From Mobula hypostoma (lineage: Eukaryota), in assembly GCF_963921235.1 (NCBI RefSeq), contig NC_086108.1:56360001-56424000 (forward strand): 64,000 nt of DNA, read 5' to 3'. Each line of letters opens with the position of its first letter. Position 1 is the stretch's first letter. The notes beneath the pieces are model-generated. The model saw only the letters and a program-made list of their open reading frames with translations. It searched no databases and was not told the origin of the DNA. A program made the translations under genes and the position numbers. This document shows, in pieces, positions 16,131 through 61,500 of the stretch.

Positions 16131-16658
16131 TGGAGTGATGGGATGGTGCAATAAGGGGAAAAAAACTGGGATAGATGGGAGTGGTTAACAGAATTTAAAG
16201 AAATCTGTGTTCATGCCATCAGGTTGGAGACTACTAAGGTAGAGTCTGTTCCTCCCATCTTCATCTAGCTTCAACTTGACATTGGTAGAGGCCAGGACTG
16301 TCACGTTAGTGTGGGAATGGGGAAGAGAATTAGAATGGCTGGCCACTGGGAGGTCCTGGCTGAAGGCACTCCACGGTGGTCCCCAAATCTGATTTGGGTC
16401 TCACTGATGTTGATGAGGTTGTGCCAGTCACCTGTACATTTCCCTCCATAAGTTCTGCCTGACCTGCTGAATTCCTGCTGAAATGCTCCAGCTTTTTGGG
16501 TTTTGCATCTGAGTTCTAACATCTGCAGTCTCTTGTGTTCAACCAAGAGATGAAAAAGATCTAGAAGTTAAAACTCTACTGTAAATCATTTGGAGGAAAC
16601 CAGAGGCACAATTAAAATATTGCATGAGTTATGAATGTTTCAACAACTTACAACTTAC

Positions 16659-18429: not shown

Positions 18430-19665
18430 GAGGATAGTTAAAGATGGAGTGATCAGGTGGGTGATCAGTGGTGTTAGTAAGGCTGCAGATGACATGAAAG
18501 TTGATGGAGTTGTTGATAGTGTAGAAGGTTATCGTATGTTACAGTGGGATACTGACAGGATGCAGAGATGCCTGAAAAGTGGCAGATGGAATTCAACACA
18601 GAAAAGTGTGAAATGATTCACTTTGGAAAGTCAAATTTGAAGGTAGAATACGAGGTTAATGGCAAGATTTCTTAGCAGTGTGGAGGAATCACAAATAAGA
18701 GAAAACGTGCAGATTCTGGAAATCCAAGCAATACACACAAAATGCTGGAGGAACTCAGCAGGCCAGGCAACATCTATGAAAAAGAGTAAACAGTTGATGC
18801 CTTGGGCCAAGATTCTTCATCAGCTCTTCATCTCTTTCACCAATTGACTTCCCAGCTCTTTACTTCACCTCTTTCCCTCTCCCAGTTGCACCTATCACCT
18901 ACTATCACCTGGTATTTCTTTCTCCCCTCTCCGCGTACCTTTTTACTCTGACTTCTTATCTTTTTTTCTCCAGTCCTGATGAAGAGTCTCAGGCCGAAAC
19001 AACTGTTTACTCTTTTCCATAGATGCTGCCTGGCCTACTGAGTTCCTCCAACATTTTGTGTGTGTGGTGTGGAAGAATAAAGGATTTGGGAGTCCATGTC
19101 CATAGATCCCTCAAAGTTGCTGTGCAAGTTCATAGAGTTGTTAAGAAGGAATGTGTTGGCCTTCATTAGTCAGCAGGTTGAGTTCAAGAACTATGAGGGA
19201 ATTTGCAACTCTACAAAACTCTGGTTTGACCACACTTGGAATATTGTGTTCAGTTCTCCTCGCCTCATAGGAAGGATGTGGAAGCTTTAGGAAGGGCGCA
19301 GAAGAGATTTACCGTAATTCTGCCTGGACTAGATGGCATGTCTTATGATAAAAGATCGAGTGAGTTAGGGTTTGTTTCTTTGGAGCAGAGGATGAGAGGT
19401 CATTTAATAGAGGTGTACAAAATGATAAGAGGCATAGGGTGGATAGCCAGATACGCTTGCGCAGGACAGAGATGGCTAATATGAAGGGGCATCATTTTAA
19501 GGTGATTGGTGGAAAACATGGGGGAAAAATAAGAGGTAAGTTTTTTTTGTTTGTTTGGTTTTTTTACACAGAAAATGGCGAGTGTGTGGAATGCCCTGCC
19601 AGGGATGGTAGAAGAGGCAGATACATTAGGGCCATTAAAGAAAGTATTAGATAGGCACATGGATG
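18430..19665 (+). mobile_element. CR1 3' fragment carrying a Penelope-like insertion
   Basis: CR1 RT C-terminal remnants (EYCVQFSSP, QKRFT..LPGL) on both sides of 18690-19066. Confidence 0.85.
18690..19066 (+). mobile_element. Penelope-like terminal fragment with inverted partial pLTR
   Basis: 18730-18823 is the reverse complement of about 18975-19065. TSD GTGTGGAGGAAT/GTGTGGAAGAAT (18678-18689, 19067-19078). CAGTCCTGATGA...GAAAC motif at 18971. Confidence 0.82.
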
Positions 19666-22938: not shown

Positions 22939-23254
22939 CTGTAAGCACAGCAGATACTCTAGATGTCAAAATGTTAATTTTGATTTACTGCAAAGTTTAG
23001 TAGCCAGCTTGGTTCAGTCATCAAGTCACAAAGCCTCAAGAAATGCACACACTTTCTTAACTTTGTCAGGTCATCCATAACATTTAAAAACATATTATTA
23101 TCCACTGCTTTCTATAATAAAACCAGCAAAGGTTAATAAAATAACAGACAAATGGGAAACAAGACACTTAAGAGCAGTTTCTAGATTATTACAATGATCT
23201 TTTTGTCATACTGTATCATGAAATTTATGACTTACAAAAATAAAGTGAAATTAA

Positions 23255-23430
23255 AGGGAGCCGGGGTCATCTACTGTATCCAGTGCTCCCATTGTGACCT
23301 CCTCTACATTGGTGACAGCTGTTGTAAAATGGGGGACTGCTTCATCAAGCAACTCCATTCCATCTACCAAAAGTGGAACTCCCTGGTGGCACAACATTTT
23401 AATTCTAATTCCTATTCCTGCTCTAACCTT
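23255..23430 (+). mobile_element. Penelope-like GIY-YIG endonuclease fragment
   Basis: GVIYCIQCSHCDLLYIG...VAQHFNS. Confidence 0.8.
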
Positions 23431-24950
23431 AGAGTATTACAAATGCACAGAGCTGCACACTGATGCCCTTTACCAAAGTTCCACCTAGTGCTTTTATTGG
23501 AGGTAGTGCAAGTCAACAGCTAGGTATTCCAGACAGGAAATTACTTGGAACTTCACCATTAGAAGTGACTTTCCTACATAAGCATAATCAGTGCCTGAAA
23601 CCCTCTGTATATGCTAAGGAATCCTTATGTCTGATCTGTCTCATCCACTGAGTTACAGAGAAAGTAGGTGAAGTCTTCCCTTCCTGAGTTTACAGCTTGG
23701 GAGTCTTTCCGTGATGAAACAGTGACCTCAAACAGAGAAGAGGCATAGATCAGCAGCAGTGGCCTGGAATGATTCCAAGGCTGGGATCTGGCCTGGATTT
23801 TAACTGTGAGAAAATCCACATATGTGAGCTTTTACTTGAAATTGCAAAAAGTCACAGATCGTAATGAGGATCACATTGGTAAAGCTTATCCTGCATAGAC
23901 ATTGGCCCTAAATAACCACATTTAGGAACAATGATAGATTAGATTAGGAGTGATGAACCCTACAACGCCTTCTTTAAAGTGGTCTCCCTAACTGCAAGTT
24001 ATCCCTATGTCATGCCATCCACTGGACAAATACCCATTGGAAATAGGTTTTGATTGCAGAAAAACAGTTAAGATGCAAGAAAAGATCAAATCATAATTAT
24101 GTGATTAATGTTTTGACTTATCATTGAAATCAAGGAGTGCTATGGAATATCCTGACAGAAAAGTTGTTTGAGTGTGACTGGCCCTTTAAATAGTGCAGTT
24201 TCAGGGGAATTGGTTACTATTCTGAGTAAATTAAGACAGTCAAATTCTGATCAGTGAAGCTGAAAATCATGCCAGAAGGCAAGAAACAAATATTACACTA
24301 ATGCAAAATCTCATGTTAAAATCCTAATCGCTTCAGCAGTAGAGCGACCATCAAATGACATCAACAAGTCTGAAGCCGGCTTCTTTTTAAACTGCCCAGA
24401 ATGGACTCTTCAGATTTTCCAAGTGGCAAGCGAACTTCAATAGAGTTCTCTATTCAGTAGACACATGTACCATCAGCCAAGTTCAAACAGTACAGAAAAT
24501 GAAAATGAACAAATGCCAATTAGTATAATTTTTTAAAGTGGTCACTTTCCAGTACAATGTGAGTTTGCACATTCTCCCCAGTGACAACATGGGTATCTTC
24601 TGGATGCTTCAGTTTCATCCAACAACTTTAATTGGCTACTGCAGATGAAGCTTAAACAGAGATAAATGGCATAATAATTTAGTGAGGTAATATTGGACAT
24701 TGTGGGGAAAAAAGTAGAAAGGCTATAGTAAAATAAAGAGAGCAGAAATGCGACTAATAGAATTCTTGTACATGAAGCTAGCAGGGGACCTATGGACCAA
24801 ACTGCATCCTTCTACATTGTATTAACCAAGTAAACAAACAAGAAGGTAGGAAATCACGATGACCTGGTGCGTAAATCCAGGAAACTTTACTGAGGAATAC
24901 CAGTTGAAATTATCTCTATTCAGTAGACAGTTTAATAACTGCATACTTAC

Positions 24951-31544: not shown

Positions 31545-32500
31545 ATCAGAGTCAAGAGAAAATCTGCAGTTGCTGGAAATCAAAGCAGCACAGACAAAAT
31601 ACTGGAGGCACTCAGCAGGCCATACAGCATCTATAGAAAAAAGTACAGTCGATCTTTCGGGCCGAGACCTTTTGGCAGGACTGGAGAGAAAAAAAAAGAT
31701 GAGTAGATTTAAATGGTGGGAAGAGGGGAGAGAGAAAAACACAAGGTGATGGGTGAAACCGAGAAGGGAGGGATGAAGTAAAGAGATGGGAAGTTGATTG
31801 GTAAAAAAGATACAGGGCTGGAGAATGGGGAATCTAATAGGAGAGGACAGCAGGCCATGGAAGAAAGAAAGAAAAGGGGGGAGGAGCACCAGAGGGAGGC
31901 AATGGGCAGGCAAAGAGATAAGGTGAGAGAACAAAAAGAGGATGGAGAATGGTGAAGGAGGGGCAACATTACCGGAAGTTTGAGAAATCGATGTTCATGC
32001 CATCAGGCTGGAGGCTACCCAGATGAAATACAAGGTGTTGTTCCTCCAAACTGAGTGTGGCCTAATTGCGACAGTAGAGGAGGCCATGGATAGACACATC
32101 AGAACAGGAATTGGAAATGGAACTAAAGTGGGTAACCACTGGGAGACCCCTCTTCTTCTGGCAGACAGAGCATAGGTGTTCAGTGAAGTGGTCCCCCAAT
32201 CTATGTCAGGCCTCACCGATATACAGGACCCACACCAGAAGCACCAGACATAGTATATGGCCCCAACATACTCACAGGCCAAGTGTTGCCTCACCTGGAA
32301 GGACTGTTTGGGGCCCTGAATGGTAGTGAGGGAGGAGGTGTAGGGGCAGGTGTAGCACTTGTTCCGCTTACAAGGATAAGTGTCAGGAGGGAGATCAGTG
32401 GGAGGGACGAATGGACAAGGGAGTCGGGTCGGGAGTGATCCCTGCAGAAAGCAAAAAGTGGGGGGCAGGGAAAGACACGCTTGATGGTGGGATCCAGTTT
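31545..32500 (-). mobile_element. Penelope-like element 3' part (GIY-YIG endonuclease + terminal repeat)
   Basis: FPCPPLFAFCRDHS..DSLVHS linker and RQHLACEYVGAIYYVWC..CG GIY-YIG remnant. Pyrimidine-rich UTR. Hammerhead-like motif at 31646-31683. Confidence 0.85.
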
Positions 32501-33254
32501 GAGACAGGATTTCAGGGTTGTATGTGATGACATGTATGTACTCTGATAATAAATTTTACTTTGAAATGTTGTGAGGAGCGGTGATGAAATGGAAAAAAAA
32601 GAGGAATAAAGAGAGACATCAGCTACAACTTTACCCATTTTCTCCTGAAAGTAGAATTTTACGATTACCAGCTTCTCTTCTGTGAGGGTCATAAATTCTG
32701 TGCCTCAGAGTTCTGAAGATGGAGTTACTGAACAGAATCATGGTAGGGACTGACCAACATTAAAACTACAAAGGATCAAAGGCATTCTGGGCAAACAGTG
32801 GAAAAGTGATGTTAAAGCCAACACTGGATCTGCCATAATCTTACTGCATAATGGGGCTGTATTATTGCTCAACATCCTGAATTAAGGGCCTTAAATGGCA
32901 ATTGGATAGACAGTTAAGGGAAGATAGTTTTCTAGGTCATGGGAGGAAAAAACAAGGAATAGTGCCATGTAGATTGGTCAAGAGGGAACCAGATGAATTT
33001 GAATGGCAACTGACTTCTGCAGCAGTGAAGTTTCTATGAGCATATTAAAATTTAAGGCGGCTTTTGCAATTAATTTCTACTGAGGCATGTTTCTCTACAG
33101 ATACTCCATTTGGACCATCAGCTGCAATGAGATGGTCTGTCAATGTAACTTTTTAAAATGTATTTATTTGTATTGAGGATTTGGCCATCAATGCATAACA
33201 ATGTTTTGATATGATCTGTTGGCTATAGGATAGCTTAGCTGTACCTATGCATGG

Positions 33255-36200
33255 TGTAGTCGCGCGCAAACGAGCTACTAAAGAAACACACGGAGGCAGA
33301 GAGAGCTGAACGCAGAATGCCTTTACTGATTCAAAATCGCGCGCTTAAATCTCCCCTCCCATGGGCCCCGCGACCCACAGGGCGGACGTGATGTCAGACT
33401 GTCCCGAGCGGATAGTTCCAAACGCGCTACCGCATGTCTGCCCACGGCTCCCGATGGCGGTTCGAGTCCCGCGTGTGCGGGCCGCCACACCAACCCCCCA
33501 AGAAACATCCATCGGGGGAGTGGAGCCCCCTGTCTGTGTGGCCGGCCTCGCCAGCGCGGTGCGGGTACCCTCAATGGTTGCTCAATGTCCAAGCGCGCCG
33601 GCTTGAGGTGGTCCACTGTAAAAGTCTCTTCCTGGCCACCCACCTCCATGACACACGTGGGTCCATTGTGCCGGATCACCTTGAAGGGTCCCTCGTACGG
33701 CCGCTGTAGAGGTGACCTGTGCATGCCCCTGCGAATAAAAACATACTCACAGTCTCGGAGGTCTTTAGGGGTGAAGGAAGGCGTGGGACCATGCCTGGAG
33801 GTCGGAACCGGTGCCAGGGTCCCTACCTTGTCCCGCAGCCTCGTTAGTACCGCTGCTGGAGTTTCTTCCAAACCTCGGGCCTCTGGTACGAACTCGCCTG
33901 GGACTGTCAGAGGGGCGCCATAGACCAATTCCGCCGAGGTGTCCAGGTCCTCCTTGGGGGCTGTGCAGATGCCCAGCAGGACCCAGGGAAACTCATCTGT
34001 CCAGTTGGGTCCCTGAGGCGTGCATCAGGGCTGACTTGAGGTGCCGGTGGAAACGGTCTACCAAACCGTTGGACTGGGGATGGTACACTGTGGTGTGATG
34101 CAGCTGGGTGCCCAGGAGCTGCGCCAGTCTGTCCACAAACCCGACGTGAACTGCGCCCCTCTGTCGGAGGTGATGTCCGTTGGGAGGCCGAACCTGGCGG
34201 TTCAGTTTGCAATGAGCGTCCTGGCGCAGGACTCAGTGGAAGTGTCTGCGAGCGGTACAGCTTCTGACCATCTGGTGAACCTGTCTACAATGGTAAAGAT
34301 ATACCTGGCACCCCAGGAGACTGGCAAGGGGCTGATGATGTCCACGTGAATGTGTGGGAACCTCCTGTGCATCGGCTGGAACTGCTGGAGGGGAGCCTTC
34401 ACGTGCTGCTGGACTTTGGCGGTCTGGCAGTGTACGCAGGTCCTGGCCCAGTGTCCGCCCTATTTGCGCAAACCGTGCCAGACGAATCTGTCCGCTACCA
34501 CCTTGATGGACGCCAGATGGACGGGTGGGCCAGGTTGTGCAGCCTGTCGACCACCCGGCGCCTCCATGCTGCTGGTACCATGGGTCGGGGTTTGCCGGTA
34601 TCACGTCGCACAGCAGTCGATCCGCTGCCCGGCCGATGGAGACGTCCTCCAACTGGCGTCCTGAAACGGTGGTGCAGTAAGCCGGGATCTCGGTGTCGGA
34701 CCATTGTGCTTCTGCCAGTGTTGCGTAGTCTATTCCTGAGGACGATATGCCTACTGAATGGAGGCAGGGGTAAGACAGTGTGTTGGCGACGATGTTGTTC
34801 TTCCCTGCGATGTGGCGGATGTCCATGGTGAATTCTGAAATAAAGGACAGGTGCCTCTGCTGCCGAGCCGACCATGGGTCTGATATCTTGGCCAGTGCGA
34901 AGGTGAGGGGCTTGTGGTCCATATACACGGTGAACTCCCTTCCCTCAAGGAAGTACCGGAAATGCTGGACAGCCAGGTAGAGCGCTAGCAACTCTCTGTC
35001 GAAAGCACTGTACTTCACCTCTGGTGGCCGTAGGTGCCGGCTGAAGAAAGCGGGTGGTCGCCACTGGTCCTCGATGAGCTGCTCCAGGACTCTGCCAAAT
35101 GCCGTCTCGGAAGCATCGACTGTGAGTGCCGTGGGTACATCGACTCTCGGGTGCACTAGGAGGGCCGCCTTTGCCAGCACCTCCTTGGCCTGCTCGAACG
35201 CCTCCGTGGACTCTGCGTCCCGTGCCACTTCTTTGGCCTCACCGGCCATCAGGCTGAACAAGGGTCTCATGATGCGTGCCGCCGCCGGCACGAACCGATG
35301 ATAAAGGTTGACCATCCCTACGAACTCCTGCAGGCCCTTGACCGTGCTGGGCTTGGGGAACTGGCAGATGGCCTGGACCTTGTCCGGTAGGGGAACTGCG
35401 CCATGTCGGTTGACTCTGTGGCCCAAGAAGTCGATCTCCATCAGCCCGAACTGGCACTTCGCCGGATTGATTGCCAGTCCATGGTCGCTCAGGCGTTGGC
35501 AGAGCTGGCGCAAATGTGCCACGTGCTCTTGGTGCGAACTGCTGGCCACCAGGATATCATCCAAGTAAATGAAAATGAAATCCAGGCCGCGTCCCACTGA
35601 GTCCATGAGCCTTTGGAAAGTTTGGGCTGCATCCTTGAGACCGAGAGGCTTCCTCAGGACTTCGAACAAGCCGAACGGGGTGATGACGGCTGTCTTGGGC
35701 ACGTCGTCGGGGTGCACTGGGATCTGATGGTATCTCCTGACCAGGTCGATTTTCGAGAAGATGGTCACTCCGTGCAGGCTCGCCGGGAAGTCCTGGATGT
35801 GGGGTACCGGGTATCTGTCGGCGGTTGTGGCGTCGTTGAGCCTTCTGTAGTCTCCACAGGGCCTCCATCCTCCTGCGGACTTGGGCACCATGTGCAGCGG
35901 GGATGTCTACGGGCTGTCTGAGCGGCGTACGATTCCCATCCCTTCCATTTTACAGAACTCCTCCTTGGCCAGGTGGAGCTTGTCAGGTGGGAGCCTGCGA
36001 GCTCGGGCATGCAGCGGCGGTCCTTGCGTGGGGATATGGTGCTGCACGCCGTGCTTGGGGTCGGCCGTGGAGAACTGCAGGGTGACTATGGAGGGGAATT
36101 CCGCCAACATTCTTGCGAATCCGTTACCCGAGAGGGTCACGGAACCCAGGTGGAGGGCCAGTATCTTGGCTTCTCCGAGCTGGAAAGTCTGGAACGTCTT

Positions 36201-37301
36201 GGCGTGGACCAGACGCCGGCCTTTTAGGTCGACCAGGAGGCAGTTGGCTCGTAGGAAATCTGCCCCTAGTAGTGGCTGTGACACCGCTGCCAACATGAAA
36301 GTCCAAGTGAAATGGCTGGACCCGAAATGCAGTGAGATAGTTCGCGGGCTGTACGTCCGAATACTGGTGGCATTTGCAGCGGTGAGTTCGGGGCCTGTGA
36401 CCACATTACGAGTGTCCATGTTCGAGGGGGGGAGTATGCTGATATTGGCCCGTGTCTACTAGGAAATGCTGCCAGAGGTACAGGAGCCTGTCTCGGTGGC
36501 CAGCCGTCGTAGCCATTAGTGATGGTTGGCCCCAGCGTTTCCCGGAAAAGCACATGGTGGACGGCAGCGGCGCACGCCTGAGTCCCATCTTTAGTGATAG
36601 AAACACCATTGTTCCAAACTTTCGTCCTCTTTCCCCAATGAGTCTCGAGGGCTTCAGTTGCGGGACCTGGGCTTTGGGGCGCGTGATCGTGGCTAGGCCA
36701 ATGGAGGCTGCTCCACGTTGCTCACTCTGCCAAAGGACGTCTGCTTTAGCCGCGACCCTGCGTGGGTCGCTGAAATCCTCACTCGCGAGGAGGAGGCGAA
36801 TGTCCTCTGGCATTTGCTCGAGGAACAACTGTTCAAATAAAAGGCACGGCTTATGGCCATCCACGAGCGCCAGCATATCATTCATGAGCTTGGATGGCGT
36901 GCGGTCGTCCAAGCCTGCTCGAACCAAACGTGGGGCTGAGTGGCCAAGAAAGTCGGGAGCTTCAGAGAGACCGCGCTGTGTGAGTTGCTCGAACTCATGG
37001 CTGGTTGCTGAGTCGCCGGCTTCAGATGTCGTCTGAAACGTTGGGGTCACCAATGTAGTCGCTTGCAAACGCGCTACTAAAGAAACACATGGAGGTAGAG
37101 AGAGCTGAACACAGAATGCCTTTACTGATTCAAAATCGTGTGCTTAAATCTCCCCTCCCATGGGCCCCTGCAACCCGCGGGGCAGACGTGACGTCAGACT
37201 GTCCCCAGAAGGTCCGCGAGCAGGTAGTTCCAAACGCACTACCGCGTGTCTGCCCGTGGCAACCAATGGCGGTTCGAGTCACGCGTGTGTGGGCCGCCAC
37301 A
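33255..37301 (-). mobile_element. Ty3/Gypsy LTR retrotransposon, CsRn1-like, two LTRs, degenerate
   Basis: LTRs at 33255-33489 and 37054-37301 (TG...CA), 4-bp TSD ATGG. PBS TGGTGACCCCAACG (tRNA-Trp-like); PPT next to the 3' LTR. Domain order PR (FLVDTG), RT (YLDDIL), RNase H, integrase (HVDI, GPF/Y). Confidence 0.95.
33490..36540 (-). pseudogene. Gypsy pol (PR-RT-RH-INT), frameshifted
   Basis: ORFs 35907-36419, 34233-35891 ([33 protein letters not shown]), 34202-34402 and 33323-33928. Confidence 0.92.
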
Positions 37302-40990: not shown

Positions 40991-41134
40991 CTGGAAATGA
41001 GATACAAACATCAATATCATTTGAGCATAATTAATAGCATTCTTGGTAAGAACTCATTTAAACCATAAAGTATTCTTTGTAGGTTCTAGCCTTCAAAGTA
41101 CCCAGGACATCTTTAGGGAGTGGTGTCTCAGAAA

Positions 41135-41470
41135 AGTATTAAGGACCTCCAGCACCCAGGGCATGCCCTTCTCTTACGGTTACCATCAGGTAGGAGGTAC
41201 AGAAGCCTGGAGGCACACACTCAGCAATTCAGGAACAGCTTCTTTCCCTCTGCCATTCGATTCCTAAATGGAGATTGGATCTTTGGACACTACCTCACAT
41301 TTTTAAAAATCTATTCAATATACGTAACTGGTTTACTTGTTTATTTATTATTATTATTATTTTTATTTATCATTATTATTTCTCTGCTAGATTATGTATT
41401 GCATTGAACTGCTGCTGCTAAATTAACAAATTTCACGTACATGCCAGTGATAATAAACCTGATTCTCATA
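41135..41470 (+). mobile_element. Rex/Babar-type LINE 3' end
   Basis: HPGHALL..LPSGRRYRSL...FRNSFFPSAIR, then a 3'UTR ending gataataaacctgattct. Confidence 0.8.
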
Positions 41471-43637
41471 ATCGATATTAGATTTCTTCCTGTTTTTGTA
41501 CCCCGTATTCCAAGACCTTAGTAGGATTTACTATATTGGGTGGGGTAAACAGATGAAGGACAAAATAATGAGACCAAAAGACAGAATAGGCAATAGACAA
41601 TAGGTGCAGGAGTAGGCCATTCGGCCCTTCGAGCCAGCACCGCCATTCACTGTGATCATGGCTGATCATCCACAACCAGTATCCAGTTTCTGCCTTATCC
41701 CCATAACCTTTGATTCCAAATGAAGAAAAACACTTGATAAGTAATTTCATCTACTTATAAAGTGGACCTTGCATCTTACTATTATCGAATTAAGTTCCAT
41801 CCAAAAGCCCAATTATTCTACCTTTCCAGATTTTATAAAGATCAGTTGGTTTATCACAGCAGCGAATATCATTCTTAAACAACTTTACATACGTATCTAT
41901 TCCAAATAAATATAATTCTTGTATATCTATTAGTTTACCATCTTCATTTTACCTAAACAAGATTATTGGTTAAAAACAGAAAAGGCTTGGAAAATTAAGA
42001 GAATCATAAAGTCAGTTGTACAGCAGAGAAACATGCCCCTTAGCCCAACTTGTCTATGCCAACCAAGATTTCTATCTAAGCTAGTCCCCTATTTGCCTCC
42101 ATTTGGCTCATATCCCGCTATACTTTTTGCATCCATGTATCTGTCTAAATCGTTTTTAGATATTTGAATTATATCCGACCCTACAGCTTCCTCTGGTAGC
42201 TTGTTCCACATATCCACCACCTTCTGTGAAATAAGCCCTTATTAAGACTTTCTCCTCATCTTAAATCTATGTCCTCTGGTTTTAAACTTCTCTACTCTGG
42301 GAAAAAGACAGTGACCTCCAACTTGTATACACCCCTTGATTTTATATACCTCTGTAAAGCCACCCTTCAGCATCCTATTCTCTAGGGAAAAAGGTATCAA
42401 CCTATCCAGCCTCTTTTCATAAATCCCAGCAATGCCTTCATGAATCGTTTCTGCACCATTTCTCACTTTAACAGAAAATTTTGGCCTCCCCGTTCTATTT
42501 CCTTTCACCATTTTGTGTAATAATCTAGTTTTAGTAAATAGTATATAGAAATTCAGTCATAAAACTTAGTTTATACCAGTGATACACAACTGAAAGGTTG
42601 ATTCCCCACAACTCCCCCTTTAGACTGAGAAATGAAAATGAACATTTCTGAGTTTCTTTCCCATCACTCCAGAAATTCAACTAAGCGCATCTTGTGTGAG
42701 CCAAGTTTGCATGTTTGAAGCAACTTCTGTTTTGTTGTGCCTCAAATTATGTCATAATTCCATGGAAATCTCCATTTGGATTGTTGCTTAAGAAATCAGT
42801 CAATGATGCCCTGCAACAGCTGGCACTTCCAGGATAGCTAGTTTTTACAAAGCAATTCTATGATTTAGGCTATTTTCCTTCACACCTGTCCAAATTAATG
42901 ACCCTAGCCACTCACTATTCCAGACACCCCACCCTGCAAAAACTCATTCAGGTAGGTAGCACCCCCGCCCCCCACAACCCCATATCTCTCACCCCCCCTA
43001 CCCCCCCCCACCCCCCCAGTCGACCTCCAAGGATGTATGTAATACCTTGTTTAGTGATTTTGTCTAATCTGTAAACCAAGTTGGGTATATGCAGAAAATG
43101 TGACATTAAAATATGTACTTATATTATATTATCTATTACAACTTTAAGCAAGTCTACAGGGAGTTTGGCCTCATCATGTAGGACATCAATAGGGTAGCTC
43201 CTTAGCAGCTAGCCAGCTAGTTTAAAGAACATTAGCTATGCTAATGAACAAATGACACCTGTTAAACTCACCTCAACATGCCTTTTACATTTTAACCCAC
43301 CATGGGCAATAGAAAAGTCACTGTTGCAAACAGTGCAGCGAGCAACACTGTCATTATTTTTGAGGTCCACTGTAAAGCCCGCGCACAGAAAAAACTGATA
43401 GGTCTACTCGCAGAGGTCCCCAACCTTTTTTGCACTGTGGACTGGTTTAATATTGACAATATTCTTGCGGACCGGCCAACCGTTCGGGGGTGGGGGGTGG
43501 TGGTGGCGGTGTTAATCACGATCGGACGATCGGGATACAGGTGATAAGTCAACTGTAAGTCACTTATAAGTGGCTAATACACTGAATTTCGTTTCTAAAA
43601 AGGTTTATCTAACGAATTTAATATTAAACACACAGCA

Positions 43638-43771
43638 ACACACATAAAAGTTGCTGGTGAACGCAGCAGGCCAGGCAGCCTCTCTAGGAAGAGGTGCAGT
43701 CGACGTTTCAGGCCGAGACCCTTCGTCAGGACTCTGATCCCAGCTCTCATCCAAAGTACTTGGTGTCCCTA
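43638..43771 (-). mobile_element. 134-bp Penelope-like terminal insertion
   Basis: Perfect 15-bp TSD ATTAAACACACAGCA (43623-43637, 43772-43786). Same terminal sequence as the other Penelope-like ends. Confidence 0.85.
43698..43733 (-). ncRNA. Minimal type I hammerhead ribozyme motif (intact core)
   Basis: Minus strand reads AGUC-CUGACGA-AGGGUCUCGGCCU-GAAA-C-GUC-GACU: stem I AGUC/GACU, core CUGANGA and GAAA, stem II AGG/CCU, palindromic ACGU stem III, GUC cleavage triplet. Confidence 0.75.
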
Positions 43772-44984
43772 ATTAAACACACAGCACATATTTTCCTCGC
43801 ATGAATATAGTGATAAATCAATTATAAGTCACTTATAAGTCAATAGCATCATAATATTTTAAGTAACGTTTGGATATTAAACACACAGTGCATATTTTCC
43901 TCGAATGAACGTATAAAATCATTGCAACACACCAATATCACTGAATAAGTGGGAGCCCTGGGCTTGTTTCCCTGCAACAAGACGGTCCCATCGAGGGCTG
44001 ATGGGAGACAGCGATACTCGAAGGGGGTTCCTTATGTCCAGTCTATTCCGCAATTTAGTTTTCGTTGCATTCATTGCAGAAAACCCTGCTTCGCAGAGAT
44101 ATGATGTTGGAAATAGAAGCAACGCTTTCAGTGCTTTCGTGGCTATCTCAGGATATTCAGCCTCGACTTTGATCCAGAATGCCAGCAGAGATGTTATGTC
44201 AAACATACTTTTCAGCCCATCGTCATTTGCAAGCTCGAGGAGTTGATCTTCTTCCCGCGCTGAGATGGAAGACGCGTGGGTAATGACCTCGCGTGCGTAA
44301 TAACCTCATGTGCGTTCAAGTTCAACAGTGGGTGTGACAAGGAATGAGGAAAGGTGCAGCTGACTCATATCATTTCATATCGCCAAATCATATGGGTTCC
44401 TCATGGCCCAGTGGTTGGGGACCACTCTTAGCACGAAGAGAGACCAATCAGGATGCTCGCTCTCGTTCTCCCTCTCCCTCTCAAAAAAAATTGATTTCCG
44501 GGATATTGTATATAATTTCCAGGTGTCAGGGAGCTGCTATCAATATGCGGGAGACTCCCAGAACTTCCGGGAGAGGTGGGAAGTCTGCTATTCTCACTTC
44601 TATCCCTCTGCCATGCACATTCTTATTTACAACTGCCGAGCATCCTTGACCCCAACTTCTATGAAATTCCAAACTTCACAATCACTAACTCATTGGTAGT
44701 TTGAAGTCCCCAATCCTTTAAACTTCACAAAGGGGTATCAAACTACATCAACCCCACAGTGCATCAACTTAGAGTCAGCTGATCTCTGCCCAATACCGAG
44801 GACCTGAATGGACCTCCCTCTATCTCCCAATTCACCCTCATTCTCGTCCTTGTGGGAAGGAAAAAGTGTAATTGCTATTCAGTAACATTTGCTGCCATAG
44901 ATCTAAGGTGTCTCTGATGTTTTTTGCGACAGACTCACGATAAGAATGTTAGATGCTCAGTCATACAATACTCATGCATGCAAT

Positions 44985-46375
44985 GCAGAAACAAAAGACT
45001 ACAGATGCTTGAATCTGGAACAATAATCTGCTGGAGGCACTCCGAGGATCGAGCACCATCTGGGGAGGGAAAAGATTATCAATATTTCAGGTAAAACCCT
45101 GCATTAGGGCTGAATGGAGAGCTGAGATGGCCAAGACAAAGAGGAGAAGGGGAACCCAAGGTGATGGGTGGACAGAGAAGTGGGGGGGGGGGGTAAGATG
45201 ACTGGGTGGAGTTGGAAGCCGGTGACAGGTGAATGATAGATGGACCAACACACAAACTGCTGTAGGAACTCAGTGGGTCAGGCAGCATTTATGGAGGGAA
45301 GTAAACAGATAATGTTTTGGGCTGAGACTCTTCATCTGGCCTAAAAGGTATAGGGAAAGAACCAGCATAAAAAAGTGAAGAAGCAGCTCACAGGTGTTAG
45401 GTGAATCCAGGTGAAGGGGTGGGGGCTGACAGTTGAATAAGGAAGGGAAGAAGCTGGGAAGTAATAGGTGGAAGAAACAAAGAGCTGAATATGATGGAAT
45501 CTGACAGAGGAAGCTGGAGCATGGAATAAAGGGAAGGAGATGGGGGAGAGCATAAGGTGAGGAACCAGTGGGTGAAGTGTTGGGCAAATAGAGAGGGAAG
45601 AGACATGATGAATGATGCAGGTAGAACAGGAAGAGAGAGCAAAGAGACAGACAGAGAGCAGTTACCAGAAGTTTGAGAAAACAATGTTCATGACACCAGG
45701 TTGTAAACTACCTGGGCAGAAAACTAATCCTCCAGTTTGCGTTTAGCCCAAACTTATCAGAGGAGGAAGCGCAGGACAGACACGTTGGTGTGACAATGGG
45801 CAGGAGAATTTAAAAGGCTGGCAACTGGGAGATCCAGACAGCCACAGTGGATGAAGTGAAGGTGCAATAGATAACAATGGGGAATTTGCATGTAAAACAC
45901 TGTGCCCACTGGAAGGGCTACTTAGGGCACTGGATGGTGATCAGATGTAGAAGAAGTATGTTACACCTCTTGTGCTCACAAGGGAGAATGCCTCAGCAGC
46001 AACCATTAGACCAGGGAATCACAGAGAGAGTGATCCCTGAAGAAACCAGAAAGAGGAGAGAGAAAGACATCACGGATATGGATTGATATGCAGGATACAT
46101 AGGCTGGGGGGGGGTGATAGGTGAAGACCAAGGAAACTCTAACTCCCTTCTGACTGGGAGGGGTGAGGCGGAACAGGGCAAAGGCAGAAGTGTGGGAAAT
46201 AGGGGATATGCAAGTGAAGGTTCCATCAATGGGGCAGGGAGCCTGGCTTAATGAAAAATAGGATATCATGGAGTAGAAGACATCATTTCAAGTACAGATG
46301 CACCAGAGATGGAGGAACTAATAAAAAAAGTCTGGCATCCTTACAAGTTGACAGGGTGGGAGGAATTGTAGTAGG
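44985..46375 (-). mobile_element. Old Penelope-like element with two tandem degenerate terminal repeats
   Basis: Two decayed terminal units (about 44990-45105 and 45245-45345), purine-rich UTR on the + strand, and GIY-YIG/linker remnants (GFFRDHSLCDSLV; RVSLVFTYHP). Confidence 0.65.
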
Positions 46376-46379
46376 AGAA

Positions 46380-46672
46380 ATGTTTATTTATTTATTGGGA
46401 TACAGCACGGAATAGACCCTTCTAGCTCTTTGAGCCATGCTGCCTAGCGACCCCCAACTTAACCCTAGCCTGATCATGGAACAATTGGCAATGACCAATT
46501 AGCTTATTAACTGGTACATCTTTGGACTGTGGGAGAAAACTGGAGCACCTGGAGGAAACCCACACAGTCACAGAGAGAACATACAAACTCTTTACAGGCA
46601 GCGGGAAGAATTGAACCCAGGTTGCAGATACTGTAAAGCATTGTGCTAACCACTACGCCACCATGCTGCCTC
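46380..46672 (-). mobile_element. tRNA-derived V-SINE
   Basis: A box GGCGTAGTGG, B box GGTTCAATTC, V-core GGGTTTCCTCCAGGTGCTCCAGTTTTCTCCCACA, (TAAA)n tail. Confidence 0.85.
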
Positions 46673-47671
46673 AGTGAATAATCTGTATCCTGACATGGAG
46701 ACAAAAAGGACAAGAAAGGGAGAAAGGTGTCAGAAATGGACTAAGTGAATTTAAAGGTGGGGTGGCAATTGGAGGCAAAGAGAGAGAGCGAGAGGAAAAA
46801 AAGAGGCAGATGGAATGAGATGGGGTAGAGAAGTGTGAATTTTGGACTCAGCTGCTGGAGGAAGATAAGCTGAAACACAAAGATCTACCGGAGCTGGAAT
46901 CTGATAAGTAAAGAAGATAATGGGAACTATTAGGGGAGGGGTGAATGGCAGGTGAAACCAGAACTAAAGCCAGATTTTTAACCTGGATCTGACAAGTACT
47001 GTACAAGACACCGTGTCATAAAGCAATAGAGTATGGATACAGGCCCTTCAGCCCACTGAGTCCATGCCGACCACAGTGTTGAGATTCATTATTTGTTCCA
47101 GTCACCTTCTCAACTTCTCATCATGCAACATGCCACTTAAATAGATACGAGTGGATAGTCAGAATTGGTGTTGTTCCTGGAAATCAACAGCATTGTTGAA
47201 TTTCAAATGTCATTGCTTAACAATGCCATTGAGCTATTAACACCGAACTGTTACGTTTGACATCCAGTCTCAGCCTCACTGGAATAAGGAGAAGGAGTGC
47301 AGAAAAGTGCCCTCAATATATTGCGGGTTCCCAAAGCCCTTCCCAGTCAGAACAAAGGAATCTGGGATTGTACCCCATTGGGCTCTATTAAGGCAATTAA
47401 ATAATTGTATTTATTTGTATCTCAACTTCATTTAGTCACCATTTCTTTATCTTCATCAAGCACACAAATACACTTAAGGTGCTTTGTTGAAAATTTCATT
47501 TGATTAAAAAAGCCTTCCAGATCTTCAGCAATCCTACTTTGAAGCCAACATCAATGGCTGAAACCATTTTCTTTCTTTTTCATGATGATGCATCGGAGAG
47601 GGGAGCAAAAAAATGCCTACCAATGGTTTAAAGTCCCTTTTGTGGCAAAGTTGAGTTTGATAACCTTATTG

Positions 47672-47887
47672 CAGCGGTCCCCAACCACCAGGCCATGGAC
47701 CGGTACCGGCCGCAAGGAAACAATATGATTTGGTGATATGAAATGATATGAGTCAGCTGCACCTTTCCTCATTCCCCGTCACGCACTGTTGAACTTGAAC
47801 ACCCCCCCCCGCCCCCCATCAGCCGGTCCACAAGAATATTGTCGATATTAAACCGGTCCGCGCTGCAAAAAAGGTTGGGGACCCCTG
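47672..47887. mobile_element. hAT MITE (216 bp), same family as 43411-44427
   Basis: TIRs CAGCGGTCCCCAACC / GGTTGGGGACCCCTG, perfect 8-bp TSD CCTTATTG. Internal sequence matches both ends of the longer element in reverse orientation. Confidence 0.93.
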
Positions 47888-47956
47888 CCTTATTGGATGG
47901 AAAATTCTTTCCACAAATGCTAAATGTTCACTTTAAACATGATGATCAAAGCCTAC

Positions 47957-54535: not shown

Positions 54536-54666
54536 AGGAAACGGCCTGATGTCTCTGGGGGAGCATGTTCCCAGCAATGTACCAAGGAACTCCCGAAAGT
54601 GAAAGACCTTATTCCTGAAGGCTTAGTGGGACCGCGCTCCAGTGTGTCGCTACGGATAGAGGATAT

Positions 54667-57600
54667 TTGGGTATTTACGCTAAAGCCATACTCGACACCG
54701 GGTCACAGGTCACATTACTGTACCATTCGTTTTACAACTGGTATCTGAAGCATTTACCCTTGACACCATTCAGTGCACTGGAGATTTGGGGTCCCGGTGC
54801 TGGTGATTATCCATACGACGGTTATTTGTCGGTGAAACTGGAGTTCTCGGAGGCCAATGTGGGAGTGTCTGAGGTCCTTGATACAGTGGTGCTGGTTTGT
54901 CCGGACCCTGTTGAGACGGGTAGCGTTTCAAATCTGGTGGGGACCAACACCCCTCTTGTGAGGAGTCTCATGGGGGCCTGCAAGGAGAAGGCGGGTGAGA
55001 GCTTTTTGGGGACATTCTCCGTGCACCCAGTGTTTCAAGCTACGTTTGAGGAAATACGTGGCAGCATTGGGCCAGATACCGAATTTAAATGAGGGACTGT
55101 GTGGTGCACCCAGTCAAAGCCAATGGTGGTACGGCCCGGGGAAGTAGCGAGAGTGATGGGGACCCCCAAATTTCCCAGAGTGCCTGAGGGCGAAGCCCTC
55201 TTAGTAGACGCTCCGGAAGACCATGAGGGGGAGTTGGGATTTCCTGCTGGGCTACTGGTGAGGCCCGAATTGCAGAAGCCCTCGGTTGTACAGGTAAGCA
55301 GGATGGCAGTGATCATCAGGAACATTATGAAGAGGGAGGTCGCCTTCAAGCCCCTGGTGCATTTGTTCCTGGTGACGATAATGTGTAGTGCCCCCGTGAA
55401 GCATGCTGGGGAGAAACTATTGGAAAAGGGGGGAAAGTTGACTGCTGAGTCATTCGACTTTGGGGACTCCCCGGTACTCCCAGGTTGAAAAAGCAGGCTG
55501 GTAGAGAAGATGTTGAAGCTGGAAGATGTCTTTTCCATTGGCGAGTTTGATGCAGGTTGTTCCAAGAGTACTCATCACACTATCCGGGTAACCGAGGACA
55601 CCCTGGTTAGAGAGAGGTCGCAGCGACTGGCCCCTGCAGACGTGGAAGACATGCGGCAGCATTTGTGTAAGTTGAAGGAAGCTGGGATCATCACTGAGTC
55701 CCAAAGTCCCTATGCGTCCCCAATAGTAGTGGCCCGGAAGAAGAAGGGGAAAGTGCGCATGTGTCTATAGGACTCTGAACAGGCGCACCGTCCCTGACCA
55801 GTATATGGTCGAAGACGTGCGGGACTGTCTGAGTGGTGTGAAGTGGTTTAGTGTGCTGGATTTGAGGAGTGGATATTACCAGATCCCGATGAGTGAGGCC
55901 AACAAAGAGAAAATGATGTTTACATGTCCCCAGGGATTCTTCCAGTTCTAAAGGATGCCCCAGGGCATATCGGCAGCCCCTGCAACCTTCCAGCGGGTCA
56001 TGGAGAAGACGGTGGGGGACATGAACTTGCTTGAGGTGTTGGTGTATTTGGATGACCTCATAGTATTTGGATCCACCTTGGAAGAACATGAAGCGAGGAC
56101 ACCGAAGGTGCTCGGCCGCCTGAAAGCTGAAGGGTTAAAACTTTCCCTGGACAAGTGCCAGTTCTGCCAAACGTCTGTTAGCTATGTCGGACACATAATC
56201 TCATGGGATGGACCCAGCAAAGATAGAAGTGGTGACCACTTGGCCGAGGCCCCAGACTGGGAGCGCTCTGCGCTCGTTCCTTGGGTTCTGTGGTTATTAT
56301 CGGAGATTTGTGAAGGGCTACGCCAAAGTGAGTCACCCCTTGAACCAGCTTCTGTGCAGTTACCCTCCCTTGAGGAAGAAAGGGAGGGGGAAAAGGACAG
56401 GAGGGTGGAGAATATCTAAACCCGTTGGAGCCCTTTAGACAGAGGTGGGATGTAAAATGTGAGGAGGCATTTCAGTCGCTGAAGGAGTTGCTGACCCAGG
56501 CCCCGGTGCTGGCTTTTGCGGACCCCTGATTGCCGTATGAACTGCACACAGATACCAGCCGAGAGGGTTTAGGGGACGTCCTGTATCAGGATTAGGGCAC
56601 CGGGTTGAGGCCTGTGGCGTTTGTCAGCCAGAGTTTGTCACCCTCCGAAAGAAACTATCCCACACACAAGTTGGAATCCCTGGCGTTGAAATGGGTGGTG
56701 GTGGATAAGCTGAGTGACTATCTCTACGGGGCCAAGTTTGAGGTGAGGATGGACAACAACCCCCTAACTTATATCCTGACCTCGGCGAAACTGGATGCCA
56801 TAGGCCATCGGTGGTTGGCAGCGTTGTCCACCTATGATTTCAGCCTGAAGTACCGGCGGGAAGCCGGAACATTGATGCAGATGCTTTGTCCCGACAGGCG
56901 TATGAGGGACTGGACATGGACAAGGAGTGGGAGAGCGTTCCTGCCCCTGGGGTGAAGGCCATGTGTCAGTTTGCCATCATCGTGAAGGCAGAGGAAAAGG
57001 AGAGGTCGGATCGAGCAGTGGATCAATTGGGGGCTTCTGATGATGCCATACCCCAAGTTTACTGTAACCTGACTGCCCTGAAGACAAATCAGCTGCCGGA
57101 ATTGAGTTCTGGGGAAGTGGCAGCTGCTCAGCAAGATGATCTGGGCATTGGCACTATTTGGTCAGCAGATGAAAAGGGAGACATGGCTCAGGTGGAGAAG
57201 ACAAAACACGCTTCAGTGCCTCCATTACTGAAAGAATGGCCTCAGTTGGAGTTGAAGAACCAGATCTTATACCAGGTCATGTCACCCCCGGACTGACCTT
57301 GGCGTTGCCAGCTGGTTCTGCCCAAGAAGTATCGGAGGATTGCATTGAAGTCACTTCATGATGATTCTGGACATCTGGGGGTGGAAAAGACCTATGGATT
57401 GCTCAGAGACCGGTTTTACTGGCCCCAAATGAAGTTGGAGGTTGAAGAATACTGAAAGTCATGCATTTGCTGCATACGGCGGAAGACACTGCCTACACGG
57501 GCAGCTCCTTTGTCCCACTTGCAGAGTGCAGGGCCCCTGAACCCGGTGTGTATGGATTTCCTATCCATAGAACCCAATACCAGCAATACAGCAAATGTCT

Positions 57601-58572
57601 TAGTCATCACGGACCACTACACCAGATTTGCTCAGGTTTTTCCCACCAAGGACCAGAGGGCAACTACGGTGGCAAAAGTGTTATGGGAGAAGTATTTAGT
57701 TTAGTGTGGCCTTCCCAGGCGGATACATAGTGACCAGGGATGGGACTTCGAGAGCAGACTCATGTATGTGTTACTAGGCGTGCTTGGAGTTGAGAAGTTG
57801 AGGACCACGCCCTATCACCCACAGGGCGACCCCCAGCCTGAGAGATTTAATTGGACCTTGCTAGACATGCTCTGGACTCTGGAGATCAGCAAGGAGAGCA
57901 GGTGGAGTCAACATATTGGGCATCTGGTTCACTGTTAAACTGTACACGAAATAAAGCTACTGGATACTCGCCATATTATCTGATGTTTGGGCGCGAGGCG
58001 AGGCGAGGTTGCCCATTGACCTTTGTTTTAGGACTGACAAGGGTGACTTACCACCGAAGTCTTATCTGAAGTATGTGTCTGATATGAGGAGGGAGATGAA
58101 AAGGGCTTATGAATTGGCTGGGGTTGCGGGCGCCAAGCAGAATCAAGGAAATAGGAGGAGGTACGATCAAAAAGTGAGGTTCTCCCAACTCCTGCCGGGA
58201 GACCGAATCCTCATAAGGAATTTGGGGCTACCTGGAAAGCACAAGTTGGTTGACTGCTCGGTGGCCACACCCTATGTGATGGAGAGTCAGATGCCAAACC
58301 TACCGGTTTTCTGGGTGAGACCAGAGGTGGGGAAGGGGCCTGTCAACATTCTCCATCCGAACCACCTGTTGCCCCTGGGAAAAGAGGTGCAGGTAGACCC
58401 AGAGCCTGACTTGGAGCCAACACCTAGTAAGAGGACTCCGCGAAAACGCAGGGCAACTGTAGGGCCCACAGCAAGAGAGGCTGGGCCAGACCCTGCCATG
58501 AGAAGGATACTGATTCGGAGGATGATGATCTGGATGTGTGGTACATGCTGCCATTCACTAACTCCCCATTGA
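54667..58572 (+). pseudogene. Gypsy pol (PR-RT-RH-INT), multiple stops and frameshifts
   Basis: Fragment ORFs 54667-55092, 55510-55770, 55955-56419, 56605-56955, 57510-57704 and 58009-58572. Confidence 0.9.
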
Positions 58573-61500
58573 TTGAGGCAGAGACTCCTGGCCCTTCTCC
58601 ACTGAGTCAGGTGAGGTGGGGGGGGGGGCTATCTGTGGGCAGCCTGGGTTACAGCAGGACCCTGAAGGAGAGAAAGCGGTGCCTGGACACGGGACAGAGG
58701 GCTCCGAGTTGCCGGGGGGCATGAGTGATAGATCGAGGGAGGATTCGCCAAGTAGGCCCGAAGTATCCCCAGTAGCGTCTGAGCTTGAAGAGTTAGGTGA
58801 GGCGGTATGGAGGTCTCAAAGAATTAGGAGACTACCTGATAAATTGGCCTATGTAGAGCCTGGGGAACAGGGCATGATCTCTACTGCTTCAGGGAGCTAT
58901 GTCACTGTCTTTTGCACCTGGATTGGGCTTTGTGTTTTGCAGGAAGGGTTGGCAAACTATCTCAACGTCATGAGGACGACTAAATTTGGTGGGGGAAGAG
59001 TGAAATGCGCTGTAAGGGTTCACTGCTAATGTAATGGTTTCTTGTAATGTTCACTGCTGAAGTAACGGGTTCTCTGTAGCAGCAATGTTTGGGTTATGGC
59101 TGGAGATAACAGGACTATGGATGCATGTTAGTCAATCAGGATTTTGTTGCCCTGTCTTGTGATTCTGAAAGCAGTTGATTTCGCGGGCTTTTGCCAGAGG
59201 GAGACAGAGAGAGAGAGATGAAGAGAGAAGACACGAATGGAGAGATTTGGTAGACCGCCAGACGGGGTGAACTCAGAGCGGGGGTCTGAAGGTTGGCGAC
59301 GCTCGGAGGAGACCAATAGTGGAAGAAGGACTACTGAGTGAACTCCAACCTTGTGTACAGACTGTTTAATAAGATTTGGGCACTTTCTCTTTTATATTTT
59401 GTTTCTCTACTCACCATATAGTCTCAGTAAGAGTTATAAAGCTTAATTCTTTAAACACATATTGTATACTGTTTGTTATTTCGGGGTACTGATTTGTAAC
59501 AGAGGACAAATCCACCCAAACGAGATTTCTTAAGTTTGGCCAGGCAGGGGGTTATCACCCCCTATGTTAAGCCGCTAGGCGAAACGAGTGTTACACATAG
59601 ATAGAAAAAGCAAGGAGATCTTGAAGAGAGAATTTAGGGAGCTGGGTAGTAAGCTGAAGAACAGGAGGGCCAACAGGAGGAGATGCACCAGTGAGGGTAA
59701 GAATAACATGATCTGGCAGATGAATGTGTGGTTGAGAAACTGGTACAGGGGGCAAGGTTTCAAATTTCTGAATCATTTCTGAAGGTGCTGTATTTGAATG
59801 CACATAGCATGTGGAAAAAGGGAGATGAACTTGCAGTGCAGTTAGAGATAGGCAGGTATGACATCATGTGCATCACTGAGTCGTGGCTAAAAGAAGATTT
59901 TAGTTGGGGACTTAACATCCAAGGATACACATTGTATCAAAATGACAGGCAGATAGGCAGAGTAGGTAGGGTGGTTCTGTTGGTAAAAAATGAAATCAAA
60001 TCCTTAGAAAGAAGTGACATAAGATCAGAAAATGTAGAATCTTTGTAGGTAAAATTAAGAAACTGCAACAGTAAAAAGACTGATGGGAGTTACATACAGG
60101 CCTCCAAACAGAAGCCAGGATGTGGGCTACAAATTACAATGGGAGATGTAAAAGGCATGTTAAAAGGGCAATGTTACAATAGTCATGTGGTATTTCAATA
60201 GGCAGGTAGATGGGAAAATCAGGTTGTTGCTGGATCTCAAGTAGAGAATTTGTAAAGCAGCTTGTAGTTAAGCGCATAAGGGAATCATTATTCTGCATTG
60301 CATGTTGTATAATGAACCGGATTTGATTAGGGAGCTTAAAGAAAAGGAACATTTAGGAGGCAGTGATCATAAAATGTTAGAATTTACCCTGCAAATTAAG
60401 AGGGAGAAACTAAAGTCAGATGTTTCAGTATTACAGTGGAGTAAAGGGACGAGGGAGGAGCCAGCCAAAGTTGGTTGGAAGGGAACACTAACAAGGATGA
60501 CAGCAGAGCTGCAATGGCTGGAATGTCTGGGAGCAATTCGGAAGGTGCAGGAAAGATACATCGTAAAGAATAAGAAGTATCTAAAGGCAGGATGACACGG
60601 CCATGGCTGTCAAAACCAACAAAAAAAAAATCAAAATAGAGGGCATATAATAGAGCAAACAGTAGTGGGAAGTTAGAGGATTGGGAAGCTATTAAAAACC
60701 AACAGAAGGCAACTGGAAAACCACAAGGAGCAAAAAGCTGAAATATGAAGGTAAGCTAGCCAATAAAATCAGTGAGGATACCAAAAGCTTTTTCAGATAT
60801 AAAGAGTAAAAGAAAGGCGCAATTAGATATAGGACTGCTGGAAAATGATGCTGGAGAATTAGTAATGGGGGACAAGGAAATGGTGGACAAAAAGTATTTT
60901 TTCATCAGTCTTCACTATGGAAGGCACTAGCAGTATGCCAAAAGTTTGAGTGTCAGGGGGCAGAAGAGATTGCAGTTTCTACTATTGGGGAGAAGATGCT
61001 TGGGAAACTGAAAGGTCTCAGGGTAGACAAGTCACCTGGATCAGATGGACTACACCTCAGGGTTCGAAAGAGTAGCTGAAGAGATTGTGGAGGCCTTAAG
61101 AATGATTTTTCAAGGATCAATAGATTCTGGCATGGTCCCAGCGGACTGGAAAATTACAAATCTCACTCCACTCTTCAAGAAGGAAGGGAGGCAGAAGAAA
61201 ATAAATTATAGGCCAGTTGGCCTGACCTCAGTGGTTGGGAAGGTGTTGGAGTCAGTTGTTAAGGATATGGTTTTGGAGTACCCCGAGGCACATGACAAAA
61301 TAGGCCGCAGTCAGCATGGTTTCCTTAAGGAAAAATCTCGCCTGATAATTCTTTGAGGAAATAATGAGCAGGATAGACAAAGGAAAATTGGTGAATGTTG
61401 TGTACTTGGGTTTTCAGAGGCCTTTTACAAGGTACCACAGACTTTACAATATAATTGTCCATGGTATTACAGGAAAGATACTAGCATGGGTAGAGCATTG

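Follow-up and report, generated by a model that had tools for sequence, protein, structure and literature searches.

A minimal hammerhead motif at a truncated Penelope-like terminus in a DNAI4 intron of Mobula hypostoma

On the strand that is transcribed as DNAI4 pre-mRNA, a short intronic insert of Mobula hypostoma carries the letters of a hammerhead ribozyme. The question raised by this locus is whether the motif cuts the pre-mRNA of its host gene, marks a mobile unit of its own, or is carried along as part of a larger element. It is highly likely that the insert carries the 3' end of a high-copy Penelope-like element (PLE) and is a dead, extremely 5'-truncated copy whose hammerhead is a passenger, probably without any consequential cutting of the DNAI4 pre-mRNA. 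All positions refer to the window, the whole stretch of 64,000 nucleotides that was analysed (contig NC_086108.1, positions 56,360,001 to 56,424,000). The features are collected in Table 1. Statements about published systems refer to excerpts of the papers cited.

The hammerhead motif and its insertion

The minus strand from 43733 to 43698 reads AGUC CUGACGA A GGGU CUCG GCCU GAAA CG UC GACU. The initial annotation had described a minimal hammerhead core with stems I and II on this strand and a loopless palindromic stem III (ACGU). These elements are all present, as are all invariant core letters and the GUC triplet. The pairing of AGG with CCU that it had assigned to stem II, however, has a probability of about 2%. 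In the favoured register, A43722 is left unpaired and the stem closes with G·U; the probability per pair is 0.78-0.96 in stem II and 0.65-0.96 for stems I and II overall. The closing G·U pair itself has a folding probability of 0.86-0.94, compared with approximately 0.02 for the A-U register.

The checks proposed for the motif included a descriptor search and a search with the Rfam covariance model. Our own strict descriptor has a single match on both strands of the window, at 43733-43698, and 0 matches in 60 simulated 64-kb windows generated by second-order Markov models of the window, and a chance origin of the motif was rejected on these grounds. The Rfam search gave 0 matches, both over the whole window at the gathering score and over 43500-43900 at E values up to 10. 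We read this silence as due to the loopless helix III, which falls outside the Rfam hammerhead models.

It is important to compare this motif with the minimal hammerheads (min-HHRs) of PLEs (Cervera and De la Pena 2014, PMC4209133). These are found in the fish Xena, Poseidon and Neptune PLEs, mostly as single motifs on truncated PLEs, and the motif in the insert is likewise a single one on a truncated PLE in a fish. It shares with them type I topology, a loopless helix III with palindromic positions 15.2-16.2, an extra base between positions 9 and 10.1, a helix I of 4 bp and the core CUGANGA/GAAA/NUH. In two respects it differs: helix II has 4 bp, while that of the Schistosoma motifs has 7-8 bp, and the G10.1-C11.1 pair, highly conserved in min-HHRs, is replaced by G·U (PMC4209133). 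The excerpts of the main text of that paper name no ray family. The motif in the insert descends from the minimal hammerhead of PLE pseudo-LTRs (pLTRs) and would work like it.

The insert spans 134 nt (43638-43771) and is flanked by two exact copies of the 15-mer ATTAAACACACAGCA. At spacings of 100-200 nt, the window contains no other exact 15-mer repeat (1 of 6,447,335 position-distance pairs). The empty form of the site was also observed, since contigs from all four sequencing runs (X1, X4, X5 and X14) join 43622 directly to 43772 and thereby skip 149 nt, that is, 134 + 15. These runs come from related organisms, possibly of other species, with a best share of sampled window words of 0.59. 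The joints may derive from paralogous copies of the hAT transposon that surrounds the insert or from an orthologous empty allele; in either case, an insertion with target-site duplication (TSD) is confirmed, as the initial annotation had it. The 4 nt at 43634-43637 are, according to contig loose ends before 43634, the own continuation of the PLE family as well, and two readings of the event are equally good: a TSD of 15 bp plus microhomology over 4 nt, or a TSD of 11 bp.

The clean TSD and the empty-site joints make an assembly artefact unlikely. Among the contigs of the four runs, no record bridges both insert junctions. The bins at 43752-43767 are nearly uncovered in the four runs (0, 2.7, 0.3 and 0), a hole that proves neither absence of the insert nor polymorphism. 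The insertion had also been called recent. This holds relative to the older copies in the window (75-79% identity), but the copy already has one private change among the positions counted and, in addition, an inferred CpG change.

Table 1. Positions of the insert, its hammerhead motif and related features in the window
Feature	Position	Strand	Remarks
Left copy of 15-bp target duplication	43623..43637	+	starts ATT, AT-rich site; last 4 nt also match family continuation
Right copy of 15-bp target duplication	43772..43786	+	exact repeat
3' end (96 nt) of high-copy Penelope-like pseudo-LTR	43638..43733	-	hammerhead and 60 nt ending TG-rich, without downstream tail
38 nt joined to first base of stem I	43734..43771		not pLTR sequence; no match elsewhere in window
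Minimal type I hammerhead, no helix III loop	43698..43733	-	sequence, folding, own strict descriptor
Hammerhead stem I, 4 bp	43733-43730 with 43701-43698	-	sequence
Hammerhead core CUGACGA	43729-43723	-	sequence
Hammerhead extra A, unpaired in favoured register	43722	-	folding
Hammerhead stem II, 4 bp	43721-43718 with 43713-43710	-	closing pair G·U
Hammerhead GAAA	43709-43706	-	sequence
Hammerhead palindromic ACGU (15.2-16.2)	43706-43703	-	sequence
Putative scissile bond, GUC triplet	between plus-strand 43702 and 43701	-	predicted from motif
Older family-identifying relative	31560..32576	-	RT-thumb/linker/GIY-YIG ORF remnant, then pLTR; decayed hammerhead 31610-31682
Second old PLE remnant, same intron and orientation	45244..46770	-	RT-EN pieces and pLTR (copy at 45245), broken core
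DNAI4 intron	40991..47956	-	about 7 kb, GT..AG; flanked by the exons that encode residues 10-72 and 71-132 in Mobula birostris DNAI4
Host element, multi-copy hAT-type DNA transposon derivative	43411..44427		14-nt terminal inverted repeats
hAT transposase C-terminal remnant	43919-44305	-	Dimer_Tnp_hAT E=0.0025, under curated cut-off

The Penelope-like family, the host gene and the target transposon

Eight older relatives elsewhere in the window match the repeat part of the insert, 43638-43733, over lengths of 15-100 nt and at 75-93%. A ninth, weak BLAST match inside a Gypsy element at 35635 was discarded as chance. Two of the eight (31610 and 45245) are preceded by remnants of ORFs, and these remnants match ray proteins whose RVT_1 and GIY-YIG hits score slightly below the Pfam cut-offs; the first of these pLTR copies lies about 290 nt behind its ORF remnant. 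These relatives bear out the proposal of a Penelope-like terminus whose minimal hammerhead is of the dimer type. The arrangement of a pLTR behind an RT and GIY-YIG ORF is true of the relatives, but the insert copy itself has no ORF. When one such ray RT/GIY-YIG protein was used as query, thousands of relatives were retrieved. The Cys-rich linker C-x4-C-x2-C is located before the endonuclease in two proteins (P0003 and P0126). Such a linker is a feature of Neptune, shared with Nematis (PMC8557442), and suggests a Neptune-type clade for the family, an assignment that rests on the linker motif rather than on a tree.

Additional GIY-YIG remnants of old PLE copies are found at 16125-16476 and 23254-23460, and at 16.1-16.5 kb an endonuclease piece and a pLTR piece have opposite orientations. 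From their ORF translations, two further segments (33323-37143 and 54619-59029) are what we take to be remnants of decayed Gypsy-type LTR retrotransposons, and those at 739-4244 and 7798-9187 are presumably LINE RT remnants.

The family is plainly very abundant in the organisms of the runs, which possibly do not include the species of the window. On a 451-nt stretch holding PLE and hAT parts together, there are 62,585 contigs in X1, 37,139 in X4, 19,541 in X5 and 3,831 in X14. The summed contig depth over the PLE part is 10^5 to 10^7 in these runs, a depth that does not equal copy number. In the 24 of 858 loose-end entries listed, such ends number in the hundreds both before 43634-43635 and behind 43731-43733, and 43634-43733 is therefore regarded as the shared unit of the family. 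The ends before 43634-43635 are partly heterogeneous, which we read as a common insertion end, and partly share one continuation, which we read as the tail.

Exact motifs of the window have 0 matches in viral, metagenome and prokaryote collections. PLE relatives were found at 29 metagenome loci with 40-63% protein identity, none of which matches the insert at the DNA level or carries a corresponding hammerhead, and none were found in viral contigs. The ESM Atlas returned generic GIY-YIG/HTH_animal clusters only. In the literature searched, which lay outside Repbase, Dfam and most subscription journals, no published description of this ray PLE family was found. The same pLTR end also enters gene models: a Mobula hypostoma STARD3NL isoform model (P0004) ends in its translation as an apparent exon, which may be a real exonisation or an annotation artefact.

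The identity of the host gene is clear. An exon in the window has 100% identity, over the aligned part, to DNAI4 of Mobula birostris and 96% to that of Hypanus sabinus. All DNAI4 exons found by tblastn in the window are on the minus strand, and the insert sits between those at 48142-47954 and 40993-40808. The position initially assigned to the motif, sense to the DNAI4 pre-mRNA and intronic, is thus confirmed; the donor is approximately 4.2 kb and the acceptor approximately 2.7 kb away. The direct target of the insertion is the hAT-type transposon derivative. A short, internally deleted copy with the same hAT ends lies at 47715-47888, in opposite orientation and near the upstream DNAI4 exon.

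The 38 nucleotides at the 5' junction

Similarity to the family extends to the first base of stem I (43733) and stops exactly there. The P0004 model, which carries the same repeat, agrees from the codon at 43733 onward and differs before it. The accumulation of loose ends behind 43731-43733 is confounded, as any subfamily with different upstream sequence must diverge there. In the window, the 38 nt beyond this point match nothing longer than words of 10-11 nt. A comparison with 155 PLE-like proteins, most of which are without the N-terminal region of the family, gave no convincing peptide match. No protein or DNA match to the 38 nt was found in the collections searched. The two halves of the 38 nt may resemble two separate stretches of the 5' region of the family ORF, in opposite orientation, and on balance we lean towards the view that they are short inverted scraps of that region. 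If so, the 38 nt would represent, in its smallest form, the inverted partner that typically accompanies PLE insertions.

The insert has the 5' truncation, TSD, AT-rich target and defined 3' end that are features of EN+ PLEs. It differs from described EN+ PLE insertions of the Neptune type (Craig et al. 2021, PMC8557442; Arkhipova et al. 2013, PMC3846280; Frangieh et al. 2024, PMC11167929) in keeping only 96 nt and in a TSD of 15 bp, compared with 8-10 bp in the rotifer examples. An inverted 5'-truncated partner is often, though not obligatorily, found at the 5' junction of EN+ PLEs, while the extra 5' piece of the insert is no recognisable inverted pLTR.

The junction could also have arisen from a spliced chimeric RNA, in which an upstream exon of the host or of a PLE, ending in AG, was spliced to stem I, the acceptor being at the 5' strand of that stem. 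The PLE machinery would have retro-copied this RNA, and the 38 nt would be the end of the exon. Such a spliced template is improbable in our estimation. The break does fall exactly at stem I, one reading frame is open through the insert, and in older window copies (31680-31720 and 18930-18975) a polypyrimidine tract and CAG immediately precede the stem I/core letters of the hammerhead. However, the sole protein match obtained with the open frame (P0004) is confined to the repeat part, outside the 38 nt, none of the DNAI4 exons matches the 38 nt, and our preference for inverted ORF scraps also speaks against splicing. PLEs are known to retain introns, which is a further point against it, although in D. 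virilis the Penelope intron extends up to the 5' end of helix I (PMC4209133). The likeness of the older copies to that case suggests a pLTR intron that would likewise end at helix I. One older copy also has GT at the ORF stop (~31972).

Another possibility concerns the fold of the hammerhead rather than its cleavage. It is conceivable, though rather unlikely, that the hammerhead acts as a structural stop, its fold setting the 5' boundary and ejecting the reverse transcriptase, which then jumps to another template. This could happen by snap-back of the cDNA through stem I, or at the outer edge of stem I if the RNA has a discrete end or an acceptor for splicing there. Such a process would be independent of cleavage and would mass-produce mini-insertions of about 100 nt with captured scraps. 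In a head-to-head pair of older pLTR ends at 11415-11534, both 5' breakpoints are located within the hammerhead, in stem I and in the core. If the structural stop were true, the present copy, in which similarity to PLEs gives way to 38 foreign nt after the first base of stem I, would be a clean snapshot of it, and if the edge of the ribozyme sets truncation points, minimal PLE hammerheads would have a role other than cleavage.

Decay, folding and the likely fate of the copy

The motif had been called an intact ribozyme, and here the comparison with other copies leads to a different view. The 10.1-11.1 pair is G·U in the insert, while the nine aligned window copies have five G-C, two G·U and two unpaired states. 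Variants at the 11.1 CpG occur in both directions among the window copies, which is the usual decay pattern. Position 11.1 of the insert is most likely CpG-decayed, with the ancestral C resting on these nine copies. Because of the G·U at this conserved pair, we classify the motif as a decayed version of that of the family and not as an intact ribozyme. A lone G10.1-C11.1 pair can replace helix II (PMC544870); the excerpts of that paper give no rate for G·U. Among contig differences, the insert has a private change at 43680, where 98.6-99.2% of the contig depth has another base, and a shared subfamily variant at 43696. None of the 40 of 49 differences listed falls at 43706-43735, probably an edge effect.

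The decay of CpG letters in the family was compared inside and outside the core. For four hammerhead letters, the depth-weighted value is 8-14% in X1, X4 and X5 and 2-4% in X14; for the single non-core letter counted, it is 12-16% and 5%, respectively. This is consistent with mostly neutral decay of the core CpGs after insertion, although the core values are slightly below those of the single control site in all four runs and there may be weak retention. By our arithmetic, one hit is nothing unusual in a copy that has ten CpG letters with about 9% decay at each. In X14, guessed to be an RNA run, family CpG decay is 2-5%, compared with 8-12% in X1, a run of DNA that bears an identical organism label. 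The difference is seen within the ribozyme as well as outside it, and young copies may be preferentially transcribed. Among the nine window copies, few and decayed, 72% of the cells are paired, compared with 17-47% when the alignment is slid, and covariation is no higher than in shuffles (254 of 500).

Folding does not favour an active form. The minimum free energy (MFE) structure of the monomer is a rod in which G5-A6-C7-G8 pair with C15.2-G16.2-U16.1-C17 and the core is sequestered, and the folding z-score is approximately 0. For two copies, the double-hammerhead fold has -9.5 kcal/mol and the best dimer fold -28.3 kcal/mol, and the intermolecular helix of 4 bp (the ACGU duplex) contributes about -1.7 kcal/mol; these nearest-neighbour energies ignore tertiary contacts and stabilisation by protein. 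No second copy in the window passes the strict descriptor. DNAI4 extends past the window, and a distant partner copy may lie there.

These results bear on the suggestion that the insert is a working intronic ribozyme, which by dimerising with PLE transcripts, or with the help of PLE protein, would cut the DNAI4 pre-mRNA and lower or alter its output. Its sense orientation, its complete set of invariant letters and the folding probabilities of stems I and II would agree with this, and the family sequence is abundant in X14. In addition, the hammerhead of the anole PLE cleaves when protein is present, and only then (PMC11167929), and some protein-assisted cleavage by the insert copy is possible, judging from its strictly conserved core letters. 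The G·U pair, the sequestered core of the monomer and a double-hammerhead form about 19 kcal/mol above the dimer MFE all argue against it, and published min-HHRs of PLEs show no cleavage as monomers and low cleavage as dimers (PMC4209133). The cleavage by pairing with other copies that the initial annotation had envisaged thus finds no support. Six of the nine aligned copies are sense to DNAI4, with no sign of purging in this small number. Even an active motif would lie far from both splice sites, and slow intronic cleavage is tolerated: a slow intronic hammerhead did not block splicing, and only a fast ribozyme did (PMC2995048, citing Dye 2006 and Fong 2009). We consider a working ribozyme at this locus very improbable.

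Single-locus contigs in X1, X4 and X5 have joints from 43730-43735 back to 43696-43703 (about 35 nt), that is, head-to-tail duplications of the motif alone. Such duplications would be natural tandem dimers and better candidates for cleavage than the insert copy. The conserved intronic hammerheads of amniotes are canonical, low in copy number and conserved across species. Like these (PMC7229834), the motif of the insert is single, sense and located in a host intron; it differs from them in being minimal, repeat-derived and nested in another transposon.

There is equally little probability that the 134 nt are a non-autonomous, ribozyme-only unit, SINE-like or a retrozyme monomer, spreading as such: the TSD is clean and the size compact, and animal retrozymes are PLE derivatives with consensus lengths of 51-972 bp and dispersed monomers (Li et al. 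2026, bioRxiv 10.64898/2026.07.22.740005), but the insert is a single, non-tandem copy with one descriptor match in 64 kb, its 3' end is the common end point of the family, its 38 nt occur nowhere else in the window, and the family contigs of the related runs match only to 43731-43733 and, in each of the four runs, part from it at 43731-43735 into heterogeneous sequence. It resembles the animal non-LTR retrozymes (Cervera and De la Pena 2020, PMC7229834; Li et al. 2026) in being small, non-coding and PLE-related with a type I hammerhead. However, those are tandem, have mostly canonical hammerheads and yield circular RNAs, while the insert is non-tandem with a minimal one. The retrozyme identity was rejected for lack of tandem units and of a recurring unit, and the tiny mobile unit of the initial annotation is likewise unsupported.

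The reading as a dead, 5'-truncated PLE copy allows us to propose how the insert may have formed, drawing on its anatomy and on the one PLE studied in vitro. The GIY-YIG endonuclease of the element would nick an AT-rich ATT site in the hAT transposon. The 3' end would pair over 4 nt with the usual tail-less start site of the family, and we infer that the letters shared by family and target at 43634-43637 are this priming microhomology. Reverse transcription would proceed over about 96 nt until it reached the outer edge of stem I in the hammerhead. From there the reverse transcriptase would jump to another template for 38 nt, after which repair would leave the 15-bp duplication. The copy would have drifted afterwards, with one private change and one probable CpG change at hammerhead position 11.1. 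In the anole PLE, AT-rich ATT sites are cut, and reverse transcription starts at two internal sites that flank the tail (PMC11167929). In contrast to the microhomology proposed here, the excerpts of that study report that no primer-template homology was found. Cleavage by the hammerhead was dispensable for insertion there, and uncleaved RNA was used.

An effect on DNAI4, which encodes a ciliary dynein component, would be notable; nothing in this analysis supports such an effect. The single locus matters little, since the motif is known and the drifting copy belongs to a very abundant retroelement. The family, however, may serve as a natural library for what minimal PLE hammerheads do and for how the 5' junctions of PLEs form.
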